A DNA stretch of 24,000 nucleotides from Nibrella viscosa (lineage in GTDB: Bacteria > Bacteroidota > Bacteroidia > Cytophagales > Spirosomataceae), in the NCBI RefSeq assembly GCF_039541875.1, contig NZ_BAABHB010000017.1:106538-130537 (forward strand), written 5' to 3'. Made by a program: the position numbers and the translations under genes. The first letter of the stretch is position 1. Each line of letters starts with the position of its first letter. Shown here piece after piece: positions 2 to 17,752 of this stretch. The notes under the pieces were generated by a model that saw only the letters and a program-made list of their open reading frames with translations, searched no databases and was not told the DNA's origin.

Positions 2-1696
2 GACAGTACACTTAAGGTTTGGGACGTGAAGACAGGAAAGGTTAAACGGCTGATCAACGGACAAACCAGCTATGTACAACTCATTCATTTAAGTCCAGAT
101 GGTCGACTTTTAGTTACCTTATCTGATAAGGAAATTAACTTAGTAGATATGAAAACAGGACAATTATTACGAAAGTGGTCAGCTCATAAGCAAATGATAT
201 ATGATGTTAATATTAGTCCTGATGGCAGGCACTTAATATCCGCTGGTGGTGATAGTACAATAAAAATCTGGGATATAACAATAGGAAAGTTACTGCACAC
301 CCTTACCGGTCATAATAAAAGTGTTTACAGGGTTTGTTTTAGTCCTGACGGTAAACAGATAGTATCTTTGGATGGAAACGATACGGTCAAGCTATGGGAT
401 GTGCAGACAGGTAAGTTATTGCATACAGCGACAACATCTGCACTTAAATTTCATTATACTGCAGAAGGTCAATGGTTAATAATATACGGTTTCAATAAGA
501 TTGAAATTCGTAATGCCAAGACGCTAGCCCTGGTTCAAACCTATGAAAATAACGGCTACTTCACGGATCTGAATTTTACACCGCCCATTACTCCTGATGG
601 GAAGTATGAAATTTATCCATATTACCTCTCTTTCTTTGTAAAAGAAGCTAAGCCTTCTTTACAAAATAAACTAATAAGCGCGGTCTCCCGACCAACGATC
701 ACCTGGGAGACACCCAATACTGAGCGAATTACCGTCAGCCAGAGTACTTTTACCGTAAAAGCCTGCGTACAGGGCACAGGCGTAAGTCAATACAACCTTG
801 TACATAATAGGCAATCACTCAGCAATCGTTCTATCAAGATTGCGTCCTGCCCTTTAGCCGTTGAGCAGACCGTAACCCTACAAGCGGGTTTGAACGAATT
901 CTATATAACAGCGACCAACGAAGGCGGTACCAGCACCTCGGAGCGTCGTTATATTACCTATCAGCCCGCTCAGTCTACAACGCCTTCTATGGCATCGGCA
1001 ACTACTACTCAGAAACGGCTGGCTCTGGTGATTGGCAACGCACGCTATACACATGCCGGTACGCTGGCCAACCCTGTCAACGACGCAGAAGCCATACGGC
1101 AGGTTCTAAAAGAAAGTGGCTTTGAGGTGCTATTCTATACCAACCTGGACAAAAAAGGCATGGTAGCCGCCATTCAGGAGTTTGGCCAGAAATTAAAAGA
1201 CTACAACGTGGGGTTGTGTTACTATGCCGGACATGGCACATTTCTCAATGGTACTAACTATTTCCTACCGGTAGATGCCAATCCAAGAAGTGCAGATGAG
1301 GTAGAGTTTGAAGGACTGCCCACAACGCGGCTTATCCGCAAGATGGAAGAAACCAACAGGCAGACCAACATTCTGCTGTTTGATGCTTGCCGCAACAACC
1401 CCTTTGAACGCAGTTGGGGCCGGACACTGGGCGAGACGGGCGGCTTCGCCTTACTACCGCCCCCGAAAGGAACGCTCATTGCCTATGCTGCATCCGAAGG
1501 CGAACAAGCCGCCGACGCGGGCCGTAACCAGACAAACAGCCCATTTGCAGCAGCCTTTGTGAAATACGTCCGACAGGGAGGATTGTCGCTGTCCCAGATA
1601 CTGCTGCGGGTGCGCCGGGAGGTGGAGGAAGTCACCAAGGAGCGCCAAACTACGCAGGAGGTCAATATGTTGAGAGATGATTTTTATTTTAAATAA
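2..1696 (+). CDS. WD40-repeat / conserved TYEN-TPDG module / Ig-like segment / caspase-like (peptidase C14) protein, 5'-truncated by the window edge
   Basis: The frame is open from nt 2 (DSTLKVWDVKTGK, WD40 consensus), so the ORF-track GTG at 26 is only the first in-window start. WD40 units carry SPDG...K(I/L)WD. The conserved module NAKTLALVQTYENNGYFTD..TPDGKYEIYPYY lies at nt ~500-650, followed by a ~90-aa two-Cys beta-sandwich-like segment. The C-terminal C14 domain reads LALVIGNARY..NPVNDA..YYAGHG..LLFDACRNNPF. Confidence 0.85.
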   Translation, partial: DSTLKVWDVKTGKVKRLINGQTSYVQLIHLSPDGRLLVTLSDKEINLVDMKTGQLLRKWSAHKQMIYDVNISPDGRHLISAGGDSTIKIWDITIGKLLHTLTGHNKSVYRVCFSPDGKQIVSLDGNDTVKLWDVQTGKLLHTATTSALKFHYTAEGQWLIIYGFNKIEIRNAKTLALVQTYENNGYFTDLNFTPPITPDGKYEIYPYYLSFFVKEAKPSLQNKLISAVSRPTITWETPNTERITVSQSTFTVKACVQGTGVSQYNLVHNRQSLSNRSIKIASCPLAVEQTVTLQAGLNEFYITATNEGGTSTSERRYITYQPAQSTTPSMASATTTQKRLALVIGNARYTHAGTLANPVNDAEAIRQVLKESGFEVLFYTNLDKKGMVAAIQEFGQKLKDYNVGLCYYAGHGTFLNGTNYFLPVDANPRSADEVEFEGLPTTRLIRKMEETNRQTNILLFDACRNNPFERSWGRTLGETGGFALLPPPKGTLIAYAASEGEQAADAGRNQTNSPFAAAFVKYVRQGGLSLSQILLRVRREVEEVTKERQTTQEVNMLRDDFYFK

Positions 1697-1726: not shown

Positions 1727-4700
1727 ATGTATCCACTATTTACTAAATCTGCAGCACTAAATGGGTTTATTCTGATCTTTTTATGGTGCTCGATCCCAAT
1801 AGTTTGTGCTCAGCAAATAGACCTTTCTCAAACCCATATGGCGGGGCATTTGCAGGCTATCAATTCAGTAGCGTATAGCCCAGATGGCAGGTATCTGGCT
1901 TCAGGCAGTGATGATCAGACTATTAAGCTGTGGGATACTCAAACGAACCGACTTATACGCACACTGACAGGGCATTCTGATGCAATCAAGTCTGTTCGCT
2001 TTAGTCCAGACGGCAAAATACTTGCCTCCGGTAGCCTTGATAAATCGATTAAACTTTGGAATGCTATTACCGGGCAACTTTTACAGACACTCTCCGAAGA
2101 AGGGAGTATTTTTTCAATTGATTACAGTCCTAATGGGAGACAACTGGTTACAGGAACTCGAGAGGGTGCTGTGAAAATTTGGGACTTACAAACCGGGAAA
2201 GTACTGAAAACTTTAAAAGGACAAAGTGGTCATACTTCCGTTGTTAAGTCCGTAAATTTTAGCCCGGATGGTAGATTAATTGCAACAGCCAGCGCCGATA
2301 AAACCATCAAACTTTGGGACACACAAACAGGAGAGTTATTGAATACCTTAACTGAACATAAAGAAACAATAAATGAAGTTAGTTTTAGTCCAGATGGGAA
2401 ACAACTTATTTCAGGCAGCGATGATAAAACTATTAAATTATGGGATACTCGATCAGGTAAACTATTGCGTAGTGTAGGTGGAGGATATCATGATAATTAT
2501 GTATCATCGGTTAGTTTTAGCCCGGATGGTAAGCTGTTTTTGTCGGCAAGTTCATCGTTTGGCTCAGGTACTAAACTGATGTTGATGAATGCTCAATCTG
2601 GCGAGCTAGTCCGAAGTATTGCATTGAGTTTTGGTTCTGTCTATTCAGTCATCTTTAGTCCAGATGGCAAACAGTTTGTTTCGGCAGGTACAGATAGGAA
2701 CATTAAAATTTGGGATACTCAACAAGGTACCGTGGAGTTTACGCTCAATCATTCTAATTCTTTATTATCAGTTCGTTTTAGTCCCGATAGTAAGCAGTTT
2801 GTCTCCGCTGGGTATGATAAAACGATTAAAGTTTGGGATACAAATAACAAGAAGTCAATAGTTGAATTTAAACATAATGATGTAGTACGATCGGTTATGT
2901 TTAGTTCCGATGGCCTGAAATTATTATCTGCAAGTGATGATAAAAGCATAGTAATCTGGGATGTAAAAACCGGAAAAAAAGAAAATACGCTATTAGCACA
3001 CTCTGACATAGTATATTATGCTTGCTTTAGCCCTGATGACAAGTTGGTAGCGTCAGGGAGTGCTGATAAGACTGTAAAAATATGGAATGCCAAACGAGGC
3101 AAGCTACTGCAAACACTAAGCGGGCATGAGGGTGTAATATTTTCAACAAGTTTCAGTCCGGATGGACAACTATTAATTGCAGGCAGTTCAGACGAAACAA
3201 TTAAAGTTTGGAATGTTCAGAATGGCCAACTTTTGAGAACACTAACAGGACACAAGGGGTCTGTATCTTTTGTTGGTTTTAGTCCGGATGGTCAGCTTAT
3301 AGCATCGTCTGGCGTTGATAATACTATAAAACTTTGGGAAACGCAAACCGGACAGTTATTGCGCACGTTAACAGGCCATGTCAGTACGGTTTTTGAAACA
3401 AGCTTCAGCCCTGATGGAAATCAAATGGTTTCGGCAAGTAATGATAAAACAATTAAAATTTGGGACGTAAAAACGGGAACCTTATTACGAACCTTAACTG
3501 GCCATGAAGGTGGGGTATATACAGTCAGCTTTAGTCCTGATGGTAAGCAACTGGTCTCTGGAGGTTACGGGAGTGAGATTAAGATTTGGGATACCAGAGC
3601 CGGTGTACTACCAAATACCCTAATTGGGTTTTACGATGAGGTCAGCTCAGTTATTAACTCTGGCAGTGCATGGCTCTTTGCAGGAACTCTAGGTGGAACG
3701 GTGAGGTCGTGGAGTGCTTGGACAGCCGCATTATATTTCTCCTACGTTGAACACTCCAGAAAAGTTAATTCTGTAAGTGTAAGCCAAGATGGTAAGTTAC
3801 TTGCTTCTGGGAGTGCCGATAAAACTATTAAACTTTGGTATACGGCTACAAGCAAATTATTTGAGACTTTAAATGGACATCAAGAAGCAGTATTGTCTTG
3901 TGATTTTAGTCCAGACGGCAAACAGGTAGCCTCTGGGAGTGCCGACAAATCAATAAAGCTTTGGGACACCCAAACTGGCGTGTTGCTGCGCACGTTAACA
4001 GGACATGAAGGAAACGTTACTGCCGTGTGCTTCACTCCCGATGACAAACAACTACTATCGGCCAGTGATGATAAGACTATTAAGGTCTGGGATCTGCTGA
4101 CCGGAAAACTAGTTCAAACGGTTCAGAATGTACCCTTCTCTATAATCGGTTTTAAATTTTTGCCGAATAGCGAAAGAATATTCTCAATCACTACAGCCAA
4201 CACACTTGAAGTTCGTGATGCTAAAACCTTTGCTATTTTAAAAACTTATGAGAATTTAGGTTTTTATACCGATCCGGATTTTAAGGCTCCCCTTACTCCT
4301 GATGGGAAGTATGAAATTTATCCTTATTACCGCTCCTTTTTTGTCAGGGAAGCGAATCCGTCAGCACCTGTCACCCGCGTCAATCCCACGGTGGCCGCAC
4401 CCACTGTCAGTTGGGAATTGCCTGCTGCCGAGCGTCTGACTGTTAGCCTGAACAATTACACGGTCAAGGCGTGTGTGCAGGGAACCGACATCAGTCAGTA
4501 TCAGCTCTACTTGAACGGGGTACCCCTCAATGGGCGTACCATCAAAACAGTGGGTTGCTCCATGCCCATCGATCAGAGTATCACCCTGCAATCGGGCGAG
4601 AATGATTTATATATTGCGGGGACCTATGGAGGCAACTCGTTTACGTCAGAGCATCGCTACATTAACTACCAACCGCCTGGAGCAACGCCTGGAACCACAA

Positions 4701-5431
4701 CAGCCACTTCATCTACAGCTAATACGTCTCGAACTCAATCAAATTTAGATGAATTCAGCAATCGTCAGGCTCTCGTTATTGGCAACTCTACCTATCAGTA
4801 TGGTAACTCACTGGATAATCGGCCTATCAACGATGCCCGTGATGTAGCAGCCAGGCTGGAGAAGCTTGGGTTTCGGGTTACCACCATCACCGATGCTACC
4901 AAAACCCAAATTGAGCGGGCCATTGGTCAGTTTAGCCGGGTGGCTCAGAATGCCGATGTCACCTTGTTTTTCTACGCCGGTCACGGGTTGGAATCCGAAG
5001 GTGTCAACTACCTCATTCCCACCGATGCCCAGTTGGAAGAACCCGAAGAAGCCCGGCTCCAGACCATTCCGCTCGACCTGATATTGAGTGAGATGAAGCG
5101 CTACAAAACCAAAGTCAATCTGGTGTATCTGGATGCCTGTCGCAACAAACTCTTTCGCAGTTGGAATAGAGACGGCATCGGACGCGGCTTCAAAACCGTC
5201 GGTCAGTTGTCGCAGAGTACCAAGGTCTATTATGCCACCCAGCCCGGAGACGTAGCTCAGAACGGTACGGGTCGCAACGGGGTATTTACTACCTCGCTGC
5301 TGAAGTACCTGCAACGGGGTGTGGAGATCGAAGATCTTATGCGCGATGTTACCAAAGATGTGATTACCAATACGCGCAACAGTCAGCAACCCTGGTCGGC
5401 GGGCACCTTACTGACGCGTTTTACTTTTTAA
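1727..5431 (+). CDS. Signal peptide + ~18 WD40 repeats + conserved module + Ig-like segment + caspase-like (peptidase C14) domain protein
   Basis: 1234-aa ORF with a hydrophobic N-terminus (..SIPIVCA QQ). About 18 units match GH..SV.FSPDG..L.SGS.D.TIKLWD. The module LEVRDAKTFAILKTYENLGFYTD..TPDGKYEIYPYY lies at nt ~4204-4350. The C14 motifs are ALVIGNSTY..INDA..FFYAGHG..VYLDACRN. By eye, the C-terminal ~230 aa are roughly 75-80% identical to the C-terminus of 11446-13935. Confidence 0.9.
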   Translation: MYPLFTKSAALNGFILIFLWCSIPIVCAQQIDLSQTHMAGHLQAINSVAYSPDGRYLASGSDDQTIKLWDTQTNRLIRTLTGHSDAIKSVRFSPDGKILASGSLDKSIKLWNAITGQLLQTLSEEGSIFSIDYSPNGRQLVTGTREGAVKIWDLQTGKVLKTLKGQSGHTSVVKSVNFSPDGRLIATASADKTIKLWDTQTGELLNTLTEHKETINEVSFSPDGKQLISGSDDKTIKLWDTRSGKLLRSVGGGYHDNYVSSVSFSPDGKLFLSASSSFGSGTKLMLMNAQSGELVRSIALSFGSVYSVIFSPDGKQFVSAGTDRNIKIWDTQQGTVEFTLNHSNSLLSVRFSPDSKQFVSAGYDKTIKVWDTNNKKSIVEFKHNDVVRSVMFSSDGLKLLSASDDKSIVIWDVKTGKKENTLLAHSDIVYYACFSPDDKLVASGSADKTVKIWNAKRGKLLQTLSGHEGVIFSTSFSPDGQLLIAGSSDETIKVWNVQNGQLLRTLTGHKGSVSFVGFSPDGQLIASSGVDNTIKLWETQTGQLLRTLTGHVSTVFETSFSPDGNQMVSASNDKTIKIWDVKTGTLLRTLTGHEGGVYTVSFSPDGKQLVSGGYGSEIKIWDTRAGVLPNTLIGFYDEVSSVINSGSAWLFAGTLGGTVRSWSAWTAALYFSYVEHSRKVNSVSVSQDGKLLASGSADKTIKLWYTATSKLFETLNGHQEAVLSCDFSPDGKQVASGSADKSIKLWDTQTGVLLRTLTGHEGNVTAVCFTPDDKQLLSASDDKTIKVWDLLTGKLVQTVQNVPFSIIGFKFLPNSERIFSITTANTLEVRDAKTFAILKTYENLGFYTDPDFKAPLTPDGKYEIYPYYRSFFVREANPSAPVTRVNPTVAAPTVSWELPAAERLTVSLNNYTVKACVQGTDISQYQLYLNGVPLNGRTIKTVGCSMPIDQSITLQSGENDLYIAGTYGGNSFTSEHRYINYQPPGATPGTTTATSSTANTSRTQSNLDEFSNRQALVIGNSTYQYGNSLDNRPINDARDVAARLEKLGFRVTTITDATKTQIERAIGQFSRVAQNADVTLFFYAGHGLESEGVNYLIPTDAQLEEPEEARLQTIPLDLILSEMKRYKTKVNLVYLDACRNKLFRSWNRDGIGRGFKTVGQLSQSTKVYYATQPGDVAQNGTGRNGVFTTSLLKYLQRGVEIEDLMRDVTKDVITNTRNSQQPWSAGTLLTRFTF

Positions 5432-5446
5432 CAGCTCCAACAAACT

Positions 5447-7012
5447 ATGGCCCAGGCAACCCTAACACTAGTTCTCTTGCTGTGGACGACGATCAGCGCA
5501 CTGGCTCAGTCCAAAAGTATTAAGATTGTAGGCGGATCGGCCCCCCGCGGTACCGAACGGCGGCTGGCCCTGGTGGTGGGCAACAAAGACTACGCTAAAC
5601 CCGGTGCCGGTCTGAGAAACCCCGTCAACGATGCCACCGATATGGCACAGGCCCTGGAGGAGCTGGGCTTCACGGTGCTACGTCGGCAGAACCTCAATCG
5701 GAGCGGCCTGGAAGCCGCCATCGACGAGTTTACCGAGCAACTTACCCGCTACGAAGTGGGGCTGTTTTATTTCTCAGGCCATGGATTGGCCTTCTCCGGG
5801 GAGAACTACCTTGTGCCCACCGATGCCAGCTTGTCGTTTGAGACTCAGGCCCGCTCGCAATGTGTATCGCTCCGGCGGGTGCTGGATGGCATGGAGGGAG
5901 CCAATGCCAAAGTAAGTCTGGTGTTTTTAGACGCCTGCCGCAACAACCCTTTTCCTAAAAGCACCAAAGGGGGGGTAAGTCAGGGCTTGGTGATTCCAAA
6001 CAATCCACGGGGCAGCCTGGTGGCTTTTGCCACCCGCGACGGGCGCACCGCCGACGACAACCCAGGTGAGCGCAACGGCTTGTTCACGGGTGAGTTGCTC
6101 AAGCACCTGCGAACGCCAAACTTAGGGTTGCGGGCCATGCTAGACCGGACCATTGCGGGTGTAGAGAGCCGCAGCGGAGGTCATCAGATTCCGGGCCGCT
6201 ACGATGAGTTAAGGGGTGATTTTATGTTTGTACAGACAGCCGGCTGGCCCAAAGTAACGGAAGACAGACGGGACCCGGTAGCTGATAACATACTGCCTTC
6301 GGTTTATTCTCTCAAAACGTACATGCCAACTATCGGTAACCAGGGTAATTATGGTACCGCTGTTGCCTGGGCAGCTTGTTATGTACGAACCATTATGGAA
6401 GCCCGGCGGCAAGGATTAGCCGGGCAACAATCGGCCATTGACGCCCTGCGGTTTTCGCCTACTTATATCTTTGAACAAGTGAAACAAGTGGGCGATAAAG
6501 AATGTCAGCTTGGTAGTCTGATTGAACCCGCGTTACTGGTGATGCAGCGAAAAGGCGCGGTATTGCTGGCAAGCTTGCCTTACCCATCTTGCGGAGCGGA
6601 TATAGTGGCTTATCATGCCCAGGCTTCCCGGTATAAAATTGGTGGCTTTGAGGCACTTTCTCCGTCCAGTAATCAAACACGCCTTTCGGCCGACGGCCTG
6701 AAGCAAGCATTAGTGGTTTCTAAAAACGCGGTTGTAATCGGTTTTCAAATTCCACGATCATTTATGAGCGCTGGAGAATACTGGCAACCGGAGCCTACTG
6801 AATCGCCGAAGAGTTCGGTCGGCAGTTCAGCGTTAACCCTCATTGGTTACGATGATCAGAAAAACGGCGGCTCTTTCTTATTAGCTAATTCCTGGGGTAA
6901 AAATTGGGGCAAAGAGGGTTACATCTGGATTCGCTATGATGTGCTCACGCAGTACGCATCTTTAGCCTATCAGATCGGTGACCCGGTTACTCCCGTCAGC
7001 GAAAAAAAGTAA
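5447..7012 (+). CDS. Signal peptide + caspase-like (C14) domain + papain-like (C1) domain with substituted catalytic residues
   Basis: 521 aa. The N-terminus is ..ISALA QSKS, followed by the conserved SIKIVGG..ERRLALVVGNKDY. The C14 dyad motifs are FYFSGHG and VFLDACRNNPF. The C-terminal ~240 aa align by eye to family C1 (NQGxxGxxxAWA, LIGYDD, LLANSWGKNWGKEGYIWIRYD). That alignment places Ala at the nucleophile-Cys position (gct 6359-6361) and Ser at the His position (tca 6827-6829). Confidence 0.85.
   Translation: MAQATLTLVLLLWTTISALAQSKSIKIVGGSAPRGTERRLALVVGNKDYAKPGAGLRNPVNDATDMAQALEELGFTVLRRQNLNRSGLEAAIDEFTEQLTRYEVGLFYFSGHGLAFSGENYLVPTDASLSFETQARSQCVSLRRVLDGMEGANAKVSLVFLDACRNNPFPKSTKGGVSQGLVIPNNPRGSLVAFATRDGRTADDNPGERNGLFTGELLKHLRTPNLGLRAMLDRTIAGVESRSGGHQIPGRYDELRGDFMFVQTAGWPKVTEDRRDPVADNILPSVYSLKTYMPTIGNQGNYGTAVAWAACYVRTIMEARRQGLAGQQSAIDALRFSPTYIFEQVKQVGDKECQLGSLIEPALLVMQRKGAVLLASLPYPSCGADIVAYHAQASRYKIGGFEALSPSSNQTRLSADGLKQALVVSKNAVVIGFQIPRSFMSAGEYWQPEPTESPKSSVGSSALTLIGYDDQKNGGSFLLANSWGKNWGKEGYIWIRYDVLTQYASLAYQIGDPVTPVSEKK
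6169..6236 (+). repeat. 68-nt near-identical dispersed repeat (copy A) at the caspase-domain / C-terminal-domain junction
   Basis: ccgcagcggaggtcatcagattccgggccgctacgatgag(t/c)taaggggtgatttt(a/g)tgtttgt(a/g)caga has 65/68 nt identical to 17003-17070. Flanking sequence on both sides is unrelated at the DNA level. Confidence 0.85.
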
Positions 7013-7434: not shown

Positions 7435-8964
7435 ATGAAATTTAACCAATCTGCCACCGAGAAAGCCGAAACCGTAAACCACGAGGGGGCCAAAGCGTAT
7501 GCGATGACACCGGCGTTGGAACTTTACTCGGCCGTAGCGACCACCATGCTGTCGGATATAAGTTACGAAAGCGCTTTCCACCGTCTGGCCCGCATTCGGA
7601 CTCTGGTCAGAAAGGTAAGCCCGACATTTGTAGCACAATTGGCCTTGTATGCCCGTGAACAGTTGTACCTACGCTCGGCACCGGTGGTCCTGATTGGCGA
7701 ACTGGCAAAACACCACCACGGCGACAGCCTGATTAGCCGGACGGTGGCCCGTGTAGTGCAGCGCCCCGATGAAATTACCGAATTGCTGGCCTACTACCAG
7801 CTGACGAATAATCGCCAGGAGACTAAAAAGCTTGGACGCCTGTCGAAGCAACTCCAGAAGGGGCTGAGGATCGCGTTTAACAAGTTTGACGAATATCAGT
7901 TTGCCAAGTACAACCGGGCCGCCCAGGTTAAACTCCGAGACGCCCTGTTTCTTGTTCACCCAAAAGCGAAGGATGAAGCCCAGCAGGTCATTTTTGACCG
8001 AATAGTAACCAATACGCTTCAACCGCCGTACACCTGGGAGAACGAACTCAGTTCCCTGGGAAAACAGCCGTTTGCCGATGAAGCCGCTAAGAAAACGGCT
8101 TTCCGGAATAAGTGGGAGGAGCTTGTGGCGAGTGGCCGGTTAGGCTATATGGCCACCTTGCGCAACCTACGTAATATGCTTGATGCGGAAGTTAGTGTAG
8201 CTACCATACAACGCGTTTGCGATCTGCTGGGCGATGCCGCTGCCGTAGACCGGGCTAAGCAGTTGCCTTTCCGCTTCCTGGCCGCCTACCGCGAAATCAA
8301 ATCGGTTAAATCTGGACATGTGGCTATGCTGAACGATGCCCTGGAAACGGCTTTGCAACTCAGCGTGGCAAATTTGCGTGGCTTTACAGCCGAAACACGG
8401 GTAGTGATTGCCTGCGATGTGTCGGGTTCCATGCAGGTTTCCGTATCGGCGAGAAGCAAGGTGCGTCTGTATGATATTGGTCTGTTGCTGGGTATGTTAC
8501 TGCAGTCGAAGTGTAAAAATGTGTTATGCGGGCTTTTCGGCGACACCTGGAAAACGGTCAATCTGCCGGGGCGTAATGTGCTGGCCAATGTGGAGGAGCT
8601 TTACCGGCGCGAAGGAGAAGTAGGCTACTCGACTAATGGTTATCTGGTGATCGACGATCTGATAAATCGGAACTACATTGCCGACAAAGTAATGCTTTTT
8701 ACAGACACACAGCTTTGGGATAGCCGAACCAACAATATGAGCCAGGATAATACAATTGAGGCTAAATGGGCCGCTTATAAACAACTGGCTCCGAACGCCA
8801 GCTTGTATCTGTTTGACCTGGCCGGCCACAAAAATGTCCCCCTGCAAGTGGAAAGTAACGACGTGTATCTGCTGGCCGGCTGGTCCGACAAAGTGTTCGA
8901 CGTTCTGCAGGCGCTGGAGGATGGGGAATCGGCCCTGTCGAAAATTGAAGCAATTTCTCTGTAA
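7435..8964 (+). CDS. rsr: Ro60-related protein (Rsr): TROVE domain + vWA domain
   Basis: Motifs match Deinococcus Rsr/Ro60 from memory: VHPKAKDE (AHPKTDD), LRNLRNM (LRNLGNL), vWA MIDAS VIACDVSGSM (LLALDVSGSM), LFTDTQLWD (VYTDNETW), and C-terminal LLAGWSDKVFDVL. I prefer the ATG at 7435 over the ORF-track TTG at 7417, which overlaps the upstream gene. Confidence 0.9.
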   Translation: MKFNQSATEKAETVNHEGAKAYAMTPALELYSAVATTMLSDISYESAFHRLARIRTLVRKVSPTFVAQLALYAREQLYLRSAPVVLIGELAKHHHGDSLISRTVARVVQRPDEITELLAYYQLTNNRQETKKLGRLSKQLQKGLRIAFNKFDEYQFAKYNRAAQVKLRDALFLVHPKAKDEAQQVIFDRIVTNTLQPPYTWENELSSLGKQPFADEAAKKTAFRNKWEELVASGRLGYMATLRNLRNMLDAEVSVATIQRVCDLLGDAAAVDRAKQLPFRFLAAYREIKSVKSGHVAMLNDALETALQLSVANLRGFTAETRVVIACDVSGSMQVSVSARSKVRLYDIGLLLGMLLQSKCKNVLCGLFGDTWKTVNLPGRNVLANVEELYRREGEVGYSTNGYLVIDDLINRNYIADKVMLFTDTQLWDSRTNNMSQDNTIEAKWAAYKQLAPNASLYLFDLAGHKNVPLQVESNDVYLLAGWSDKVFDVLQALEDGESALSKIEAISL

Positions 8965-9148
8965 AGCATGCTTTCCCTAAATCAGTTGTGTAAAATTCTA
9001 TTTAGAATGATACGTTTCGGATAAGATGTTCAGGCAGAGTTACCATATATTGTTCGGATACAGTGGCTTATTTAACGGCACCTGTTTTTGGGAATTCTGA
9101 CGGTATTGCTTAAACTTGTACGGATAATCCCATGTGGATGCTCAATAC

Positions 9149-9156
9149 TAAGTTTG
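9149..9156 (+). promoter_or_regulatory. Possible Bacteroidota-type -7 promoter element (TAAGTTTG = TAnnTTTG)
   Basis: This is an exact match to the TAnnTTTG -7 consensus, ~65 nt upstream of the Y-RNA-like fold. No well-spaced -33 TTG is present (the nearest TTG, 9116-9118, is ~30 nt away). Confidence 0.25.
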
Positions 9157-9221
9157 TGATTTCCACAACAGGAGTCTTCGGGTTACAAAATTGACCTGCT
9201 CAACCCACATCATACATTACT

Positions 9222-9361
9222 GAAAAATAGCCGGTGCCGTAGAAACGGGTTACTCCGGGTGTAAGTGGCGCAGGTTCGAATCCTGCCGCTCTTTTAGAGT
9301 GTAGCATAGCGGTCAGTGCGCTTATAATGTACCTGCTTCGTCTGTCGCCCGGCTATTTTTC
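9222..9361 (+). ncRNA. yrlA: Y RNA-like ncRNA (YrlA type) with a circularly permuted tRNA-like domain
   Basis: A 13-bp perfect terminal helix joins 9222-9234 to 9349-9361. The T-arm is GCAGG-UUCGAAU-CCUGC (9270-9286). The acceptor-like hairpin is CGCUC..GAGUG (9287-9301), followed by UA. The D-arm is GCAU-AGCGGUCA-GUGC (9304-9319). An anticodon-stem-like helix pairs 9261-9265 with 9321-9325, and 9248-9253 pairs with 9329-9333. The element lies 258 nt downstream of rsr on the same strand. Confidence 0.65.
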
Positions 9362-9368
9362 TTTGCAT

Positions 9369-11087
9369 ATGGTATTCTACCGCTCTCTCGCTGTCGTTGC
9401 CATGCTGACTCACCTGTTGACTACATCATCTGGTCAATCTCCAGTTCCCCCACTGGCCCAGTCCCAGCTGGCTGGCCATACGGAAGAAATCGTTTCAGTA
9501 GCCTTTAGTCCGGACGGCTCGCGACTGCTGTCGGGCAGCTACGATAATACCCTCAAACTTTGGGACGCTCAGACAGGAGCCGTGCTCAGAACATTTACGG
9601 GCCATAATAGTATCGTTTTCTCCGTCGCCTTTAGCCCCGATGGTCGGCGGTTGCTCTCCGGAAGCAACGATGGCACCCTGAAACTCTGGGATGCCCAAAC
9701 CGCAGCTTTGATTCAAACCCTGGTCGGCCACACCGATGGGGTCCTATCGGTGGCCTTTAGCCCAAATGGCAAACGGCTGTTATCAGGCAGTAAGGATGAA
9801 TCCCTCCGAATTTGGGATGCCCAGACCGGGACACTCCTGCAAACCATTACCGGGCATACAGGCTCGGTATTGTCGGTAGCGTTCAGCCCCGATGGTCGCC
9901 AGGTACTTTCCGGGGGCGAGGATAGCACGCTCAGGCTATGGGATGCTTTAACCGGCCGGTTGGTCAGGACAATGCCTGGTCATAAGCATTGGGTAGGCTC
10001 AGTAGCGTTCAGCCCCGATGGAAGGACGCTTTTATCCGGGAGCCGGGACAGAACCCTGAAGCTCTGGGATAGGCAAACCGGAGCCTTGTTGAAAACCCTG
10101 ACGGGACATGAAAGCAGCGTGTTGGCGGTCGCCTTCAGCCCCGACAGCCGTCGGCTGGTGTCAGCGAGTCATGACAATACCCTTGTACTATGGGATGCGC
10201 ACTCGGGAAAAGAACACCTAATACTGACAGGACACGATGAGCCAGTTGGTGCAGTGGCCTTTAGCCCCGATGGCCACCGTATTCTTTCGGGGGGTAGGGA
10301 TACCATGTTGAAGCTCTGGAATGCCCGGACAGGCCAGGTAATCCAGACGTTTTCCGGAACTATTTCCCCGGTTATTGCAACAGCTTTTAGCCCTGATGGT
10401 AGTCAGTTGATCACGGGTTGCGGGACCAATATGCTCCGGATCTGGGATAAGAACACGGGTGCCCTTACGAAAACACTGACCGGCCACACGCTGGGTGTTT
10501 CGTCCATTTCCCTCAGTGCGGATGGCAGCCGCTTGCTGTCGGGGAGTTATGATAAAACTCTCCGACTGTGGGATGCACAGACAGGACGTCTGCTCAAAAC
10601 CATTTCCGGACAAAGCACCCGAGTGCTGTCGGTGGCGCTTAGCCCCGACGGTCACCAATTAGCGTCAACTGAATGGGACAACACCTTCAAGCTCTGGGAC
10701 GCCGACACTGGTACCCTGCTGAAGACGTTTACGGGCTATGACGGAAAGGTCATAGCAGTAGCCTTTACGCCCGACGGGAAGCAGCTTTTGTCGGGTAGCC
10801 GGGATCATACTCTAAGGCTGTGGGACGCCCAGACAGGCAACGTGATTACCTCCGTTGTCTCTGAACTCCCCGCCAAAAGCTGGTTGTTTTTAGACGGAGG
10901 CCATCAGGTGCTTGTCATTACGGAGGCCAATACCCTAGAACTGCGAGAAATAAGTACCCTTAACTTGGTAAAGGAATACGAAAACACTGGATTTTTCACT
11001 GATATGACCTACCAGCCTCCACTAACGCCAGATGGGCGGTACGAGATTTATATGTATTACCGGTCTGCTTTTCTCCGAAAGCGATGA
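9369..11087 (+). CDS. Signal peptide + 11 WD40 repeats + conserved module; caspase-less paralog
   Basis: I moved the start to the ATG at 9369 (MVFYRSLAVVAMLTHLLTTSSGQSP.., which matches the paralog N-termini), because 9327-9361 forms the 3' strand of the RNA fold. There are 11 units of GH...V.SVAFSPDG..LLSGS.D.TL.LWDAQTG. The protein ends YEIYMYYRSAFLRKR-stop directly after the conserved module, with no C14 domain. Confidence 0.8.
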   Translation: MVFYRSLAVVAMLTHLLTTSSGQSPVPPLAQSQLAGHTEEIVSVAFSPDGSRLLSGSYDNTLKLWDAQTGAVLRTFTGHNSIVFSVAFSPDGRRLLSGSNDGTLKLWDAQTAALIQTLVGHTDGVLSVAFSPNGKRLLSGSKDESLRIWDAQTGTLLQTITGHTGSVLSVAFSPDGRQVLSGGEDSTLRLWDALTGRLVRTMPGHKHWVGSVAFSPDGRTLLSGSRDRTLKLWDRQTGALLKTLTGHESSVLAVAFSPDSRRLVSASHDNTLVLWDAHSGKEHLILTGHDEPVGAVAFSPDGHRILSGGRDTMLKLWNARTGQVIQTFSGTISPVIATAFSPDGSQLITGCGTNMLRIWDKNTGALTKTLTGHTLGVSSISLSADGSRLLSGSYDKTLRLWDAQTGRLLKTISGQSTRVLSVALSPDGHQLASTEWDNTFKLWDADTGTLLKTFTGYDGKVIAVAFTPDGKQLLSGSRDHTLRLWDAQTGNVITSVVSELPAKSWLFLDGGHQVLVITEANTLELREISTLNLVKEYENTGFFTDMTYQPPLTPDGRYEIYMYYRSAFLRKR

Positions 11088-14071: not shown

Positions 14072-15202
14072 ATGGTACCTATTCATTATTTCTGCGATAC
14101 GAACACCGTGGAGCAGAACGCTCTTGAACAACTGGAGCGGTACGCCGAAAATCCGTTTGTAGAGAAGATTTGTGCCTTTACGGATATTCATTTCTGCGAC
14201 GAAAAAGCCATTCCCGTGGGCGTAGCCTTCTCCACCACCGATTACGTCTATCCGCTCATTACGGGGAAGGACATCGGCTGTGGGGTCATGTACCTGCGCA
14301 TTAGCAAGGCCGACTGGCTCAGGCCCTTTAACAAGGCGGAACACTATAAAGCCTTCAACCTGGCCCACACCCGCATGACCGACGACGGCTTGGGGGGCGG
14401 CAACCACTTCCTGTCCATCGAAGAGGATGCCGATAACGTCTACGTCATTTGCCATACCGGCACCCGCGACCGGGGCATCGGTCTGTATCAGCAGTGCCTT
14501 GGGCTGACCCAGTCGTTTTCGGCTGAGTACGGACAGCAAGTGCAATTTGTTCACAAAGACTTTCTGGATGCCGGCTTCGTTGAGCAGTATAACCGAACGC
14601 TGCGGTTTGGCTACGAGCGCCGGAAAAACTTCTGCCTCAAAACACTTGTATTTCTACAGACGGCCAATTATGTCAGGGCCGAAAAGACACAGATCGACCC
14701 GAAATACCTGAGCAGCAACTTAGCCGGGTATGATGAAGAAGGAACGCTGAACGGAACATCGTACAAGCTGGAGGATTCGATTCACAATCACCTGCGGTTT
14801 GGCAACGGGTCAATTATCCACCGCAAGGGCAGTACTGAGTTAACGGCGGGCAAGACGGTGGTGATTCCCCTGTCGATGTCGCGGGGCAGTTTGCTAGTGA
14901 AGTTGAGCCACGAAACCCAGGGAGCGGATGCGCTGAATTCCTGCGCCCACGGGGCGGGCCGGCGGCTGTCGCGCTTTCAGGCCATGAAGCACTGGAAGAC
15001 GGGCCTCAAGGAAAAGGAACGACGGTCCTACAGGGAGCGCTTCTCTGAACTGCTCGACCGCTCGGGCGATTTCCCGAACGGATACATCCAGGAGTTCGAC
15101 TTCGCCTACAAGGATGCCTCGGAGCTATTTACGTATCAGCCTTACCTGAAAAAAATTACCCAGACCGAACCGATCGTGACGGTGAAGTACACAGAAATAT
15201 GA
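14072..15202 (+). CDS. rtcB: RtcB-family RNA 3'-phosphate/2',3'-cyclic phosphate ligase
   Basis: Motifs align to E. coli RtcB: TDIHF (PDVHLG), GKDIGCGV (GVDIGCGM), GGGNHFLSIE (GTGNHFIEI), ICHTGTRDRG (LHSGSRGIG), IHNHL (CHHNY), IPLSMSRGS (IPGSMGAKS), CAHGAGRR (CSHGAGR, the guanylylated His) and FAYKD (MAYKD). All metal/nucleophile residues appear present. The protein is shorter (376 aa) than E. coli RtcB. Confidence 0.9.
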   Translation: MVPIHYFCDTNTVEQNALEQLERYAENPFVEKICAFTDIHFCDEKAIPVGVAFSTTDYVYPLITGKDIGCGVMYLRISKADWLRPFNKAEHYKAFNLAHTRMTDDGLGGGNHFLSIEEDADNVYVICHTGTRDRGIGLYQQCLGLTQSFSAEYGQQVQFVHKDFLDAGFVEQYNRTLRFGYERRKNFCLKTLVFLQTANYVRAEKTQIDPKYLSSNLAGYDEEGTLNGTSYKLEDSIHNHLRFGNGSIIHRKGSTELTAGKTVVIPLSMSRGSLLVKLSHETQGADALNSCAHGAGRRLSRFQAMKHWKTGLKEKERRSYRERFSELLDRSGDFPNGYIQEFDFAYKDASELFTYQPYLKKITQTEPIVTVKYTEI

Positions 15203-15279: not shown

Positions 15280-16938
15280 ATGTACCGACTTTATTTATGG
15301 CTGTTGCTGAGCCTGCTGGTAACGCATCCGTTAGTAGCCCAGAAAAGTATTAAGATTGCTGGGGGCAGAGCCCCGGCCGGCATTGAACGGCGACTGGCGC
15401 TGGTAGTAGGCAACAAAAATTATAATCGAACCGACGCCCGACTCACCAACCCCATCAATGATGCCAACGACATGGCCAATGCTCTGGAGTTACTGGGTTT
15501 TGAGGTGATTCTTAAAACCGACCTCAACCGCGTTGACTTTGAGCAGGCAGTAGATCAGTTTGGCGAACGGCTCAAACACTACGATGTGGGCCTGTTCTAC
15601 TACTCCGGTCACGGTCTACAGGCGCAGGGCGAGAATTACCTGGTGCCGGTTGATGCAGTAATTCGCAGTGAACCCCAGATACGCTACCACTGCATGGACC
15701 TAGGGCGGGTATTGGCGGCTATGGAGGGCTCTAATGCCTCCACCAATATCGTGCTGCTGGATGCCTGTCGTAACAACCCCTACAAGAAAAGCTGGAGCAA
15801 AGGCGGCTTGGCCGAAGGACTCACCATTCCGCGCAACCCGCCGGGCACCATAGTGGTGTTTGCCACCAGCGAAAACAGCGTGGCCGACGACAATACCGGC
15901 GAACGCAACGGGCTGTTTACGGCCAAGTTGCTGAAGAACATCCGGCAGCCCAACCGCTCGCTGAGTCAGATACTGGCCGAGACCCGACGTGGGGTCTACA
16001 CCCGTAGCAACAAACAGCAGGTACCGGCCGACTACAACAAATTGATGGGCGACTTTGTGTTTGTAATTCAGGATAAGGGCAAAAACGATACCAGAACCGC
16101 CGACCAGCCATTTGGCCCGGCCATGGTGTATGTGCGGGGCGGCAGCTTCCCGATGGGCAGCGAGGAAGGAGAAACCGACGAGAAGCCCGTTCACCAGGTA
16201 ACGGTGAGCGCATTTCTGATGGGTAAGTATGAGGTCACGGTAGCTGAGTTTGAGCAGTTCATTGAGGCTACCCGCTACCAGACCGATGCTGAAAAGGAAG
16301 GGCATAGCTATACATGGAACGGCAAAGATTGGAAGAAAATGGTGGGAGTCAATTGGCGGTGTGATGCCGAAGGAAACGTGCGACCTCGCAGCGATCAGAA
16401 TCACCCGGTTCTCCACGTAAGCTGGAACGATGCGGTGGCGTATTGCGAGTGGCTGAGCCGGCGAACTGGCAAACGCTACCGACTGCCGACGGAAGCCGAG
16501 TGGGAGTATGCGGCCGGCAACGGCAGCGCTCATACCAAATTTAGCTGGGGAGACATGGAGCCATCAGGGTTAATACAGTCAAATATAGCCGACCGGAGCG
16601 CAAAAGGTCTGTTAAGTTGGGCCAATGAAAACATTAATGATGGCTACAGGTACACAGCCCCGGTGGGAAGCTACGCACCGAACCGGTTTGGCTTGTACGA
16701 TATGACGGGCAATGTACATGAGTGGTGTCAGGACTTGTATAGTGACACTTATTATTCCAATTATTCCAGCGCCAGCGGCAATAATCCAACTGGTCCCGTT
16801 AGTGGCTCGTGCCGAGTCCTAAGGGGCGGTTGCTGGAACTCGATACCGCAGCACTGTCGGTCTACGGACCGAGGCTGCGAAAACCCAGCGATTCGTCACG
16901 ACCGCGTTGGTTTTCGTGTCGTATCACCAATTCAGTAA
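15280..16938 (+). CDS. Signal peptide + caspase-like (C14) domain + FGE-sulfatase/SUMF1-like domain protein
   Basis: 552 aa with N-terminus ..THPLVA QKSIKIAGG..ERRLALVVGNKNY. The C14 motifs are FYYSGHG and VLLDACRNNPY. The C-terminal SUMF1-type motifs are MVYVRGGSFPMGS, HQVTVSAFLMGKYEVT, HPVLHVSWNDAVAYCEWL, YRLPTEAEWEYAA, FGLYDMTGNVHEWCQD, RVLRGGCW and VGFRVV. Confidence 0.9.
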   Translation: MYRLYLWLLLSLLVTHPLVAQKSIKIAGGRAPAGIERRLALVVGNKNYNRTDARLTNPINDANDMANALELLGFEVILKTDLNRVDFEQAVDQFGERLKHYDVGLFYYSGHGLQAQGENYLVPVDAVIRSEPQIRYHCMDLGRVLAAMEGSNASTNIVLLDACRNNPYKKSWSKGGLAEGLTIPRNPPGTIVVFATSENSVADDNTGERNGLFTAKLLKNIRQPNRSLSQILAETRRGVYTRSNKQQVPADYNKLMGDFVFVIQDKGKNDTRTADQPFGPAMVYVRGGSFPMGSEEGETDEKPVHQVTVSAFLMGKYEVTVAEFEQFIEATRYQTDAEKEGHSYTWNGKDWKKMVGVNWRCDAEGNVRPRSDQNHPVLHVSWNDAVAYCEWLSRRTGKRYRLPTEAEWEYAAGNGSAHTKFSWGDMEPSGLIQSNIADRSAKGLLSWANENINDGYRYTAPVGSYAPNRFGLYDMTGNVHEWCQDLYSDTYYSNYSSASGNNPTGPVSGSCRVLRGGCWNSIPQHCRSTDRGCENPAIRHDRVGFRVVSPIQ

Positions 16939-16961: not shown

Positions 16962-17752
16962 ATGGGCAATGTGCCACTAGTTCATTCGCGACGGCCGTTC
17001 AACCGCAGCGGAGGTCATCAGATTCCGGGCCGCTACGATGAGCTAAGGGGTGATTTTGTGTTTGTGCAGAAAGGTTTTTCTACACCTATTCTTGAGAAGT
17101 CAAAAACTGAACCTGTCAGTTCTAAATCTGTTCCGAACCGAACAGCCAAATTTTTAGACCTTCCTTTTGCAGAGATGGCCTATGTTGAAGGAGGCACTTT
17201 CCAGATGGGTGACCCAAATGGAATACAAGGTTATAATAAGGCACATGCGGTGACTGTGAGTAGCTTTTTGATGGGCAAATATGAAATAACAAGGCGGTAA
17301 TGGAAGAGTGTGATGGGCAGTCTACCTCCAAGTTTTAGTTCAACTCCAAAAGACTGTCAAGATTGTCCCGTTGAGCCGGTGACATGGGAAGAGATACAAA
17401 CGTTTTTGAAAACTGAACAAGCTAAGATATTTTGAACACAAAGCCGTATTACATGCCAGGTGTTGCAAGAGGCAAAATGTTACAAGTTGGTAGTTTTGAG
17501 CCTAATCGCTTAGGACTATATGACATGAGTGGTAACGCATCAGAATGGTGCAGTGACTGGGAAACTGGGTATTCTAATGAGGCTCAAGTAGATCCAACAG
17601 GACCTCCTACAGGGGATTTCAAAGTGGTACGAGGGGGGAGCTGTTGCGGGCGGTTGGACCAATGCCTGGTATTTGACCGGAATTTTGGTGATGCTACTCC
17701 CAGGTATCGACATCTATACATGGGCTTTAGAATTGTAGCCCCATCCAAATAA
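16962..17752 (+). pseudogene. Decayed caspase-FGE-sulfatase paralog (caspase domain deleted, in-frame stop, internal deletion/frameshift)
   Basis: Only the last ~20 caspase-domain codons are retained (SGGHQIPGRYDELRGDFVFVQ). The homologous frame is interrupted by TAA at 17298-17300 (..YEITRR*WKSVMG.. versus YEVTQRQWEAVMG in 18477-20168). About 45 codons, including the RLPTEAEWEYAA motif, are missing near 17410-17430, and the frame shifts there (frame of 16962 versus frame of 17432). The C-terminal motif is degraded (RGGSCCG instead of RGGSW). Confidence 0.75.
17003..17070 (+). repeat. 68-nt near-identical dispersed repeat (copy B), 5' end of the pseudogene
   Basis: See 6169-6236. This copy encodes the same SGGHQIPGRYDELRGDF(M/V)FVQ peptide. 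Confidence 0.85.

Follow-up and report, generated by a model that had tools for sequence, protein, structure and literature searches.

Background

YrlA RNAs, the tRNA-like Y RNAs of bacteria, are already on record near rsr, the gene of the Ro60 orthologue Rsr, for more than 250 species (254 in the set of Chen et al. 2014, PMC4201824), which represent at least 10 phyla. That work accepted elements encoded at most 4 kb from the Ro60 gene and on the same strand, and defined two conserved sequences, the 5' motif GNCGAAN0-1G and YUAY. The base requirements for the tertiary contacts of the tRNA-like domain are given there and by Wang et al. 2018 (bioRxiv 10.1101/312249), and both papers describe what this domain binds as unknown. 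Here we analyse a 24-kb stretch of DNA from Nibrella viscosa (Spirosomataceae, Bacteroidota), referred to as a whole as the window, in which positions 9222-9361 of the plus strand very probably encode a YrlA-type Y RNA, the RNA partner of the Rsr protein encoded upstream. As judged from sequence comparisons, the element is real, conserved and unannotated, and belongs to the YrlA class, not to a novel kind of RNA; since YrlA has already been reported in so many species, Nibrella adds an unannotated member to a known class. The analysis assigns a function to a 140-nt stretch that had carried no annotation, and corrects the likely start of the adjoining gene.

An rsr gene and a YrlA-type element on the same strand

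The gene upstream of the element is rsr, for which the following boundaries were derived:

7435-8964 (+): rsr, Ro60/Rsr orthologue, TROVE plus vWA-like protein of 509 aa

Translation from ATG 7435 gives the N-terminus common to the homologues; the mechanical open reading frame (ORF) opens at TTG 7417. The product matches the Pfam TROVE domain (E-value 2.8e-28), shows 100% identity with the TROVE protein annotated in Nibrella viscosa and has 4427 homologues at E<=1e-20, some of which are named '60 kDa SS-A/Ro ribonucleoprotein' in their source. A profile built from 25 Bacteroidota rsr orthologues (alignment A1) reaches Xenopus laevis Ro60 (1yvp, E-value 9e-7), human RO60 (9nen) and Deinococcus radiodurans Rsr (2nvo, E-value 1e-3), and the upstream gene is therefore a Ro60/Rsr orthologue, though a divergent one; the closest solved relatives of the profile are two recent entries named 'TROVE domain-containing protein'. 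The element starts 258 nt past the rsr stop on the same strand, separated from it by a spacer of 257 nt (8965-9221), i.e. at a distance and in an orientation that agree with the placement rule of Chen et al. 2014. It further agrees with the described YrlA RNAs in its stem formed by the two ends, the order of its arms, the UA linker, the YUAY sequence and the bases used for tertiary contacts. Its parts are:

9222-9361 (+): whole YrlA-type element, 140 nt; covariance-model envelope 9219-9364; ends predicted
9222-9234 (+): terminal helix, 5' strand, GAAAAAUAGCCGG, pairs with 9349-9361
9235-9242 (+): 5' motif U-GCCGUAG, presumed Rsr/Ro60 contact; equivalent of GNCGAAN0-1G with U replacing the first A
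9242-9249 (+): inner 8-bp helix, 5' strand, GAAACGGG, pairs with 9332-9339
9248-9253 (+): GGUUAC segment, complementary to GUACC at 9329-9333 as bulged GGU(U)AC
9250-9257 (+): UUAC, matching the YUAY conserved in YrlA; then UCCG, where the family consensus has UUCG
9261-9265 (+): GUAAG, 3' strand of an opened anticodon-like stem (tRNA positions 39-43), pairs with CUUAU at 9321-9325
9266-9269 (+): UGGC, 4-nt equivalent of the variable loop; C9269 corresponds to position 48
9270-9286 (+): T arm, GCAGG-UUCGAAU-CCUGC
9287-9301 (+): loop-capped equivalent of the acceptor, CGCUC-UUUUA-GAGUG, a 5-bp stem with no free CCA end
9302-9303 (+): UA linker (tRNA U8, A9), a conserved YrlA hallmark
9304-9319 (+): D arm, GCAU-AGCGGUCA-GUGC, with equivalents of A14, G15, G18, G19 and A21
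9320-9325 (+): G (equivalent of G26), then CUUAU, 5' strand of the anticodon-like stem (positions 27-31)
9329-9333 (+): GUACC, pairs with 9248-9253
9332-9339 (+): inner helix, 3' strand, CCUGCUUC
9340-9348 (+): 3' strand facing the presumed Rsr-binding motif, GUCUGUCGC (family consensus GCCUGUUGC)
9349-9361 (+): terminal helix, 3' strand, CCGGCUAUUUUUC, exact reverse complement of 9222-9234; followed by a U-rich tail, UUU at 9362-9364

Most of these segments had been named in a sequence-only reading of the window, and each of those within 9222-9361 was found, base by base, at the position it had been given. The terminal helix, described there as 13 bp and perfect, proved to be the sole inverted repeat of at least 13 bp in the window when arms up to 200 nt apart are considered. 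It forms the outer part of a long interrupted stem, continued by a G-C/C-G step, an asymmetric internal loop (CGUA on the 5' side, GUCUGUC on the 3' side) and the 8-bp inner helix, whose one A.C mismatch occupies the fourth position, the least-paired one in the family (unpaired in 14 of 33 sequences). In the Nibrella copy U9250, A9252 and C9253 are able to pair also with GUA at 9329-9331. The order T arm, capped acceptor, UA, D arm and anticodon-like pairing, likewise proposed in that reading, can be followed directly in the letters, and the arms covary in the homologues. All bases needed for the tertiary contacts of tRNA are present (U8, A14, G15:C48, G18, G19, U54, U55, C56 and A58, as well as G57), namely G9309:C9269 for the Levitt pair 15:48, G9311 and G9312 with U9276 and C9277, U9302:A9308 and U9275:A9279; to judge from these bases, the tertiary contacts of the tRNA-like core may form.

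The 140-mer is predicted to fold with -52.5 kcal/mol, compared with -40.2 +/- 3.6 for dinucleotide shuffles (z = -3.4; 0 of 200 shuffles are as stable). Of the proposed helices, the terminal one, the T arm and the capped hairpin are present in its single-sequence minimum-free-energy fold.

A covarying family in Bacteroidota rsr loci

The element was compared with 80 Bacteroidota rsr loci and with those of four closer relatives (Tellurirhabdus rosea, T. bombi, Spirosoma gilvum and Fibrisoma limi, designated L081-L084), 84 loci altogether. The nhmmer search with the window element yielded 200 matches (E<=10) in the 80 loci, 40 of them near full-length, and 80 of 80 among the matches listed lie on the rsr (+) strand. 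In the MAFFT alignment of 33 copies (A2; a larger family alignment is termed A3) the 5' stem carries an invariant U-G.CGU (U9235, G9236, C9238, G9239 and U9240 in Nibrella) and the UUACUUCG block an invariant U.CU.C (U9251, C9253, U9254, C9256); the T loop and the 3' strand CGCCUGUUGCC are conserved as well. C9348 is invariant, and the C-G/U-A covariation of columns 21/167 corresponds to the pair C9237-G9347. The Bacteroidota family thus conserves the presumed Rsr-binding region on both strands, with the GCCGUAG variant near-invariant in the 33 copies, and the family alignment provides a two-stranded consensus for the presumed Rsr-binding site.

The sequence-only reading had suggested looking for covariation in homologous intergenic regions, and the signal found there is strong. 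RNAalifold, run independently, drew four of the helices (outer helix, T arm, acceptor-like hairpin and D arm), and 23 of its 29 pairs show compensatory changes. An explicit structure, made up of the long stem (outer helix, GC step and 8-bp inner helix), the T and D arms, the acceptor-like hairpin and a trial hairpin preceding the T arm, was then counted on A2: 86.2% of its cells pair, as compared with 42-53% when the partners are slid by 1-3 columns, both sides have changed in 32 of its 39 pairs, and the covariation score is 0.537 versus 0.12-0.16 for the slid partners, with 0 of 500 shuffles reaching the observed values. The signal is spread over the helices: changes on both sides were found in 9 of 10 pairs of the outer helix (93.6% of cells paired) and in all 8 pairs of the inner helix (81%), i.e. 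in 17 of 18 pairs of the two jointly, at 81-94% paired cells; in 4 of 5 pairs of the T arm (97%); and in all 7 pairs of the acceptor-like hairpin (92%). In the D arm 97% of cells pair. The Nibrella T and D stems depart from the family consensus by both-sided changes that preserve the pairs; in the D arm, where the consensus is GCUC/GAGC, two pairs are altered in this way.

The 5-bp anticodon-like stem is not universal across the family. When strict tRNA geometry is imposed, a perfect stem is present in 31 of 151 members, compared with 4.0 +/- 1.7 after permutation (maximum 9 in 1000), and these 31 stems, with GUAAG/CUUAU of the window among them, comprise more than 20 different sequences. The trial hairpin preceding the T arm (helix 3 of the first structure, closed) was dropped from the model: on the MAFFT alignment it pairs in 50% of cells, it is confined to a subset of 17 of 150 members and it is absent from the window copy. 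In these 17 members of A3 (e.g. L006 7224-7376, L042 5801-5966) it has a stem of 4-5 bp and a 7-nt loop with a pyrimidine at position 32 (16 of 17), U33 (15 of 17) and a purine at 37 (17 of 17), followed by an nGGUC variable loop, and it looks like an intact anticodon arm, not a class II variable arm. In two L006 copies the 5' half even reaches 30.5 bits with the Rfam tRNA model.

Two covariance models were built. The first, R1, made from A2, gives 117 bits on the window element and 318 matches (E<=1e-3) in the 84 Bacteroidota loci, and 300 of 300 among the matches listed are on the rsr (+) strand. The second, R2, was built from the 150 best R1 matches, none of them from the window, which avoids circularity. 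In the 24 kb R2 finds a single match, at 9219-9364, with 97.7 bits (E-value 5.6e-23), aligned end to end over model positions 1-156. Together with the Rsr/Ro60 orthologue upstream on the same strand and the covariation in rsr loci, this match supports the proposal of the sequence-only reading that the element is the cognate Y RNA.

The effector ends of the family vary: there are tRNA-like cores with an opened anticodon stem, cores with a closed anticodon-like arm (Y32-U33-NNN-R37), and minimal elements that consist of the stem only. Short stem-only copies of about 90 nt are found in relatives, e.g. at L042 5566-5656 and L018 5895-5989. Such a natural series of effector-module variants could help in the search for the binding partner of the tRNA-like domain.

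In each of L081-L084 four or five Y-like elements follow rsr in tandem (L081 6583-7169, L082 6560-6961, L083 6585-7076, L084 6530-7101). All of these copies retain the stem GUG(C/U)CGUAG ... CCUGUU(G/A)CC; their central modules differ, some being stem-only elements of about 75-90 nt.

Rfam scans and evidence against the assignment

At gathering thresholds Rfam gave zero matches in the whole window. When run in E-value mode on 8900-9450 (a search of 551 nt), the Rfam YrlA family RF02553 aligned with 9246-9354 (+) over its full model (1-114) and in the same arm order, with 33.1 bits and an E-value of 2e-5, the best match in this interval. The covariance check that the sequence-only reading had called for thus gives a full-length alignment whose score stays under the gathering score of 69, which explains why the default scan is empty. 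A similar score, 33.3 bits, was obtained for an element beside a 'Ro-like RNA binding protein' gene of the Streptomyces phage pSt2308, and Rfam at its gathering threshold found zero YrlA in 15 of 15 Bacteroidota loci scanned; it is therefore the narrowness of the model, not another kind of RNA, that explains the low score. The Rfam YrlA threshold is a practical blind spot, which misses the Bacteroidota elements (15 loci) as well as the one beside the phage Ro-like gene, and genome annotation that relies on it would leave such Y RNAs uncalled, though a clade-aware model finds them easily.

Several observations weigh against a YrlA-type Y RNA at this position. Apart from the RF02553 score, far under the gathering score, the 5' motif GCCGUAG (9236-9242) is one base off the published GNCGAAN0-1G, with U for A. 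The Nibrella Rsr is distant from the Ro60/Rsr proteins in which RNA binding has been studied, as indicated by the profile E-values for 1yvp and 2nvo given above. The single-sequence minimum-free-energy fold contains neither the D arm nor the 5-bp anticodon-like stem, so that both rest on comparative evidence. The promoter scans upstream of the element revealed no convincing promoter: TAnnTTTG, the Bacteroidota -7 motif, is found at -50 to -40 in front of only 11 of 150 family members and occurs once in the window, at -73, while the sigma-70-type scan found one 9-of-12 site (9191-9218), at a frequency no higher than in shuffles. Finally, the close relatives have four or five tandem elements after rsr and the Nibrella window has one, so that some decay of the Nibrella locus may have occurred. 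No second Y RNA was detected in the spacer 8965-9221, whose counterpart in close relatives holds three or four additional Y-like elements; R1 with filters off gave nothing above 6.5 bits there, nor any short copy in the window, and an nhmmer search of the spacer against the 84 related loci gave 0 matches. A minus-strand sequence, ACAGGUGCCGU, within 9049-9096 resembles the 5' motif of the family (6.5 bits, E-value 0.05).

Alternative explanations and the start of the downstream gene

The gene that follows the element enters two of the three alternatives considered here:

9369-11087 (+): WD40-repeat gene (WD40 by Pfam); likely start ATG 9369; the mechanical ORF runs from ATG 9327, inside the RNA

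The letters of the element might instead be the remains of a tRNA gene, or of a tandem tRNA pair that left the T arm of one tRNA and the 5' half of the next, with no role in Rsr binding. tRNA dimers can indeed mimic YrlA matches, as Chen et al. 2014 (PMC4201824) warned, and partial R1 matches (model positions ~47-123) were seen on tandem tRNAs upstream of rsr; moreover, true tRNA arrays occur on the rsr strand in related loci (17 tRNAs in L021, 13 in L075, 10 in L039 and 9 in L022), and the Rfam tRNA model does align with part of the element (9234-9287, 21.2 bits, E-value 0.07). That score is nevertheless under the gathering score of 29, ARAGORN finds zero tRNA or tmRNA genes across the window, and the family model matches the element end to end (1-156), including a stem foreign to tRNA, with its invariant motifs and covarying closing helix. 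A pseudogene would not retain 86% of paired cells and both-sided changes in 32 of 39 pairs, and we consider this origin barely credible. A canonical tRNA was rejected as a candidate on account of the loop-capped acceptor stem, the missing anticodon loop and a tRNA-model score of 21.2 against 29, restricted to 9234-9287. A structure acting in cis on the messenger RNA, either as terminator or stabiliser of rsr or as a structured 5' leader controlling the WD40 gene, would account for the U-rich tract CUAUUUUUCUUU after the 3' strand of the helix, with ATG 9369 immediately next to it, and for the failure of the TAnnTTTG and sigma-70-type scans to identify an independent promoter; were the RNA kept in the transcript, the terminal helix would fill most of the WD40 leader. 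In L081-L084, however, the family follows rsr whatever comes next, be it a gene for AsmA, a peptidase M28, a catalase or a helix-turn-helix (HTH) regulator, and its last element ends 61-217 nt before that gene; it is therefore rsr with which the family is linked, not the gene after it. A terminator or a leader would not occur in tandem arrays of as many as about five copies, the element shows zero matches to Rfam cis-regulatory families and begins 258 nt past the rsr stop, and, apart from one site in rsr, a terminator scan of the surrounding 1 kb picked out nothing but the T arm of the element. A primary role in cis is thus very improbable; a secondary cis effect of the Y RNA element on the abutting WD40 gene is possible.

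It has also to be considered that the 3' third of the presumed RNA is the 5' end of a coding sequence, with the WD40 protein starting at ATG 9327; between this codon and the in-frame stop at 9240 there is no other start codon, and it opens the longest ORF (586 aa). Three paralogous WD40 proteins of the window have signal-peptide-like N-termini of 26-28 residues that end just before a QSP/QQI..L.GH motif, and their n-regions are short (MSFMR.., MQTIIYR..). Translation from 9369 gives MVFYRSLAVVAMLTHLLTTSSG, i.e. 22 residues before QSP with MVFYR and a hydrophobic core, while translation from 9327 gives 36 residues before the motif, 14 of which have no counterpart in the paralogues. In addition, 9327-9361 is conserved as an RNA stem in genomes where no such ORF follows. 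We therefore find it unlikely that the segment is coding and favour 9369 over 9327 as the start of the WD40 gene. The start at 9369, already put forward in the sequence-only reading, thus gains from the paralogous N-termini, though they do not prove it; exact look-ups of the products starting at 9327, 9363, 9369, 9402 and 9417 were all absent from the public protein collection. With the start at 9369 only 7 nt separate the terminal helix from the start codon, a tighter spacing than the gaps of 61-217 nt to the next gene in L081-L084.

Proposed function

Taking the evidence for a YrlA-type Y RNA together, the most likely function of the element, by analogy with the characterised systems of Salmonella, Mycobacterium and Deinococcus, is that of an Rsr-binding stem bearing a tRNA-like effector module. 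The stem motif (U-GCCGUAG opposite GUCUGUCGC) would dock on the outer surface of the Rsr ring, while the tRNA-shaped module would form a nuclease-resistant, effector-binding end. The module may tether Rsr to a partner, e.g. an exoribonuclease, and/or gate the access of substrate RNA to the Rsr cavity, and is probably modified by the tRNA enzymes TruB and Dus. The RNA is probably co-transcribed with rsr and then trimmed, with a promoter of its own as the alternative, and it probably acts with RtcB, encoded 4.7 kb downstream, in RNA quality control or repair. This scheme draws on PMC4201824 and bioRxiv 10.1101/312249.

Phage elements and tRNA arrays

The occurrence of YrlA RNAs in actinobacteria and mycobacteriophages was reported by Chen et al. 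2014 (PMC4201824). R2 matches two elements located directly 5' of the Ro-like gene of pSt2308 (L085), with 81 and 57 bits; both carry the G-CGUAG and UACUUC motifs common to the Bacteroidota family, which these matches thus tie to YrlA-like elements of actinobacterial phages. The pSt2308 gene also lies within a tRNA array, and in L021, L022, L039, L075 and L077 true tRNA arrays on the rsr strand are interleaved with Y-like elements (up to 17 tRNAs per 9.5-kb locus).

CrAss-like phages encode a TROVE protein as well, and at their TROVE loci the R2 matches are weak or partial, about 20-22 bits. In the Bacteroides phage crAss001 the region L086 5579-5809, downstream of the TROVE gene, contains a 144-nt stretch that scores 46.6 bits with the Rfam tRNA model, and also a weak partial R2 match of 19.7 bits; this may be a divergent Y-like element. 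At L087 2874-3023 an R2 match of 21.7 bits lies 5' of a phage TROVE gene and overlaps an annotated tRNA-Gln.

Gene neighbourhood

All large ORFs between 26 and 23032 lie on one strand (+), and a cluster of caspase-domain and WD40 genes surrounds rsr:

26-1696 (+): caspase plus WD40
1727-5431 (+): WD40
5447-7012 (+): caspase plus papain C1
7079-7426 (+): hypothetical protein, followed by rsr, the Y RNA element and two WD40 genes
14072-15202 (+): rtcB RNA ligase, 376 aa (Pfam RtcB PF01139, E-value 5.3e-28)
15280-16938 and 18477-20168 (+): caspase plus FGE-sulfatase
20357-23032 (+): WD40

RtcB is the usual functional partner of rsr-yrlA loci, in association with RNA repair. In the window its gene is found 4.7 kb 3' of the element on the same strand, with the two WD40-repeat genes between them, so that rsr, the Y RNA and rtcB are linked without being adjacent. 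The short ORFs 16962-17300 and 17432-17752 (+) contain pieces similar to the FGE-sulfatase portion of the caspase-FGE proteins on either side (e.g. GGTFQMGD, GLYDMSGNASEWC), and 16962-17752 is probably a broken paralogue of these. The caspase/WD40 setting of the Nibrella rsr is unlike that of the four close relatives. In three of them, all Spirosomataceae, a divergent gene for a WYL/WCX-domain regulator is located directly 5' of rsr on the minus strand (L081 3798-4880, L083 3872-4888, L084 3845-4888); no such regulator adjoins rsr in the window.

The position of rsr, the Y RNA and rtcB within a caspase/WD40/FGE-sulfatase cluster, with the RNA ending 7 nt before the WD40 ATG, could allow a regulatory coupling. 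Perhaps the element is the sole surviving Nibrella copy of a large family that goes unreported by Rfam at its threshold, and excision or folding of the Y RNA couples the sensing of RNA damage to the expression of a conflict system resembling those of cell death? We regard this combination as a rather doubtful speculation.

Comparison with known Y RNAs

The best-described counterpart is the YrlA of Salmonella Typhimurium (RF02553; tRNA-like domain in PDB 6CU1), whose gene likewise adjoins rsr on the 3' side, in the same orientation. Both RNAs have a long stem formed by the ends with a conserved 5' motif, YUAY, a short stem flanking a 4-nt variable loop, and the same order of T arm, loop-capped acceptor-like stem, UA and D arm, with no free CCA end and with a short variable loop; an anticodon-like stem opened as in Nibrella is found in the Rfam consensus as well as in the Salmonella RNA. 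The Nibrella element differs in its low RF02553 score (33 bits, gathering score 69), in the 5' motif GCCGUAG instead of GNCGAAN0-1G and in a perfect terminal helix of 13 bp. The Bacteroidota clade conserves both strands of the presumed Rsr site, whereas according to the literature only the 5' strand is conserved across bacteria. In contrast to the Salmonella operon, Nibrella has no adjacent rtcBA or rtcR, its rtcB being 4.7 kb away past the WD40 genes; tandem arrays occur in its relatives as they do in the co-transcribed Salmonella operon.

The YrlA RNAs of actinobacteria and phages (Mycobacterium smegmatis, Gordonia, mycobacteriophages) share the same architecture, and their association with tRNA arrays recurs in several Bacteroidota loci. 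Processing of the M. smegmatis YrlA includes cleavage by RNase P and addition of CCA; the 5-bp capped stem of Nibrella, on inspection of its letters, shows no sign of this. Many of the actinobacterial and phage RNAs have long variable arms, which the Nibrella copy lacks.

With Yrn1 of Deinococcus radiodurans and the metazoan Y RNAs the element shares the general plan, in which the two ends form a Ro60-binding stem that carries an effector module, and a U-rich 3' tail. The Nibrella helix, with a C-G pair, an unpaired C and a G.U pair, resembles the bulged-C helix of metazoan Y RNAs. Yrn1 differs in that its T and D elements have the other orientation and that it is encoded upstream of rsr, and the metazoan RNAs differ in having no tRNA-like module; the Rfam Y_RNA model gives zero matches to the Nibrella element (E<=10, 8900-9450). 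Finally, YrlB, the minimal Y RNA of Salmonella, is analogous to the ~90-nt stem-only copies found in the relatives of Nibrella, while the Nibrella element itself corresponds to the full tRNA-like type.

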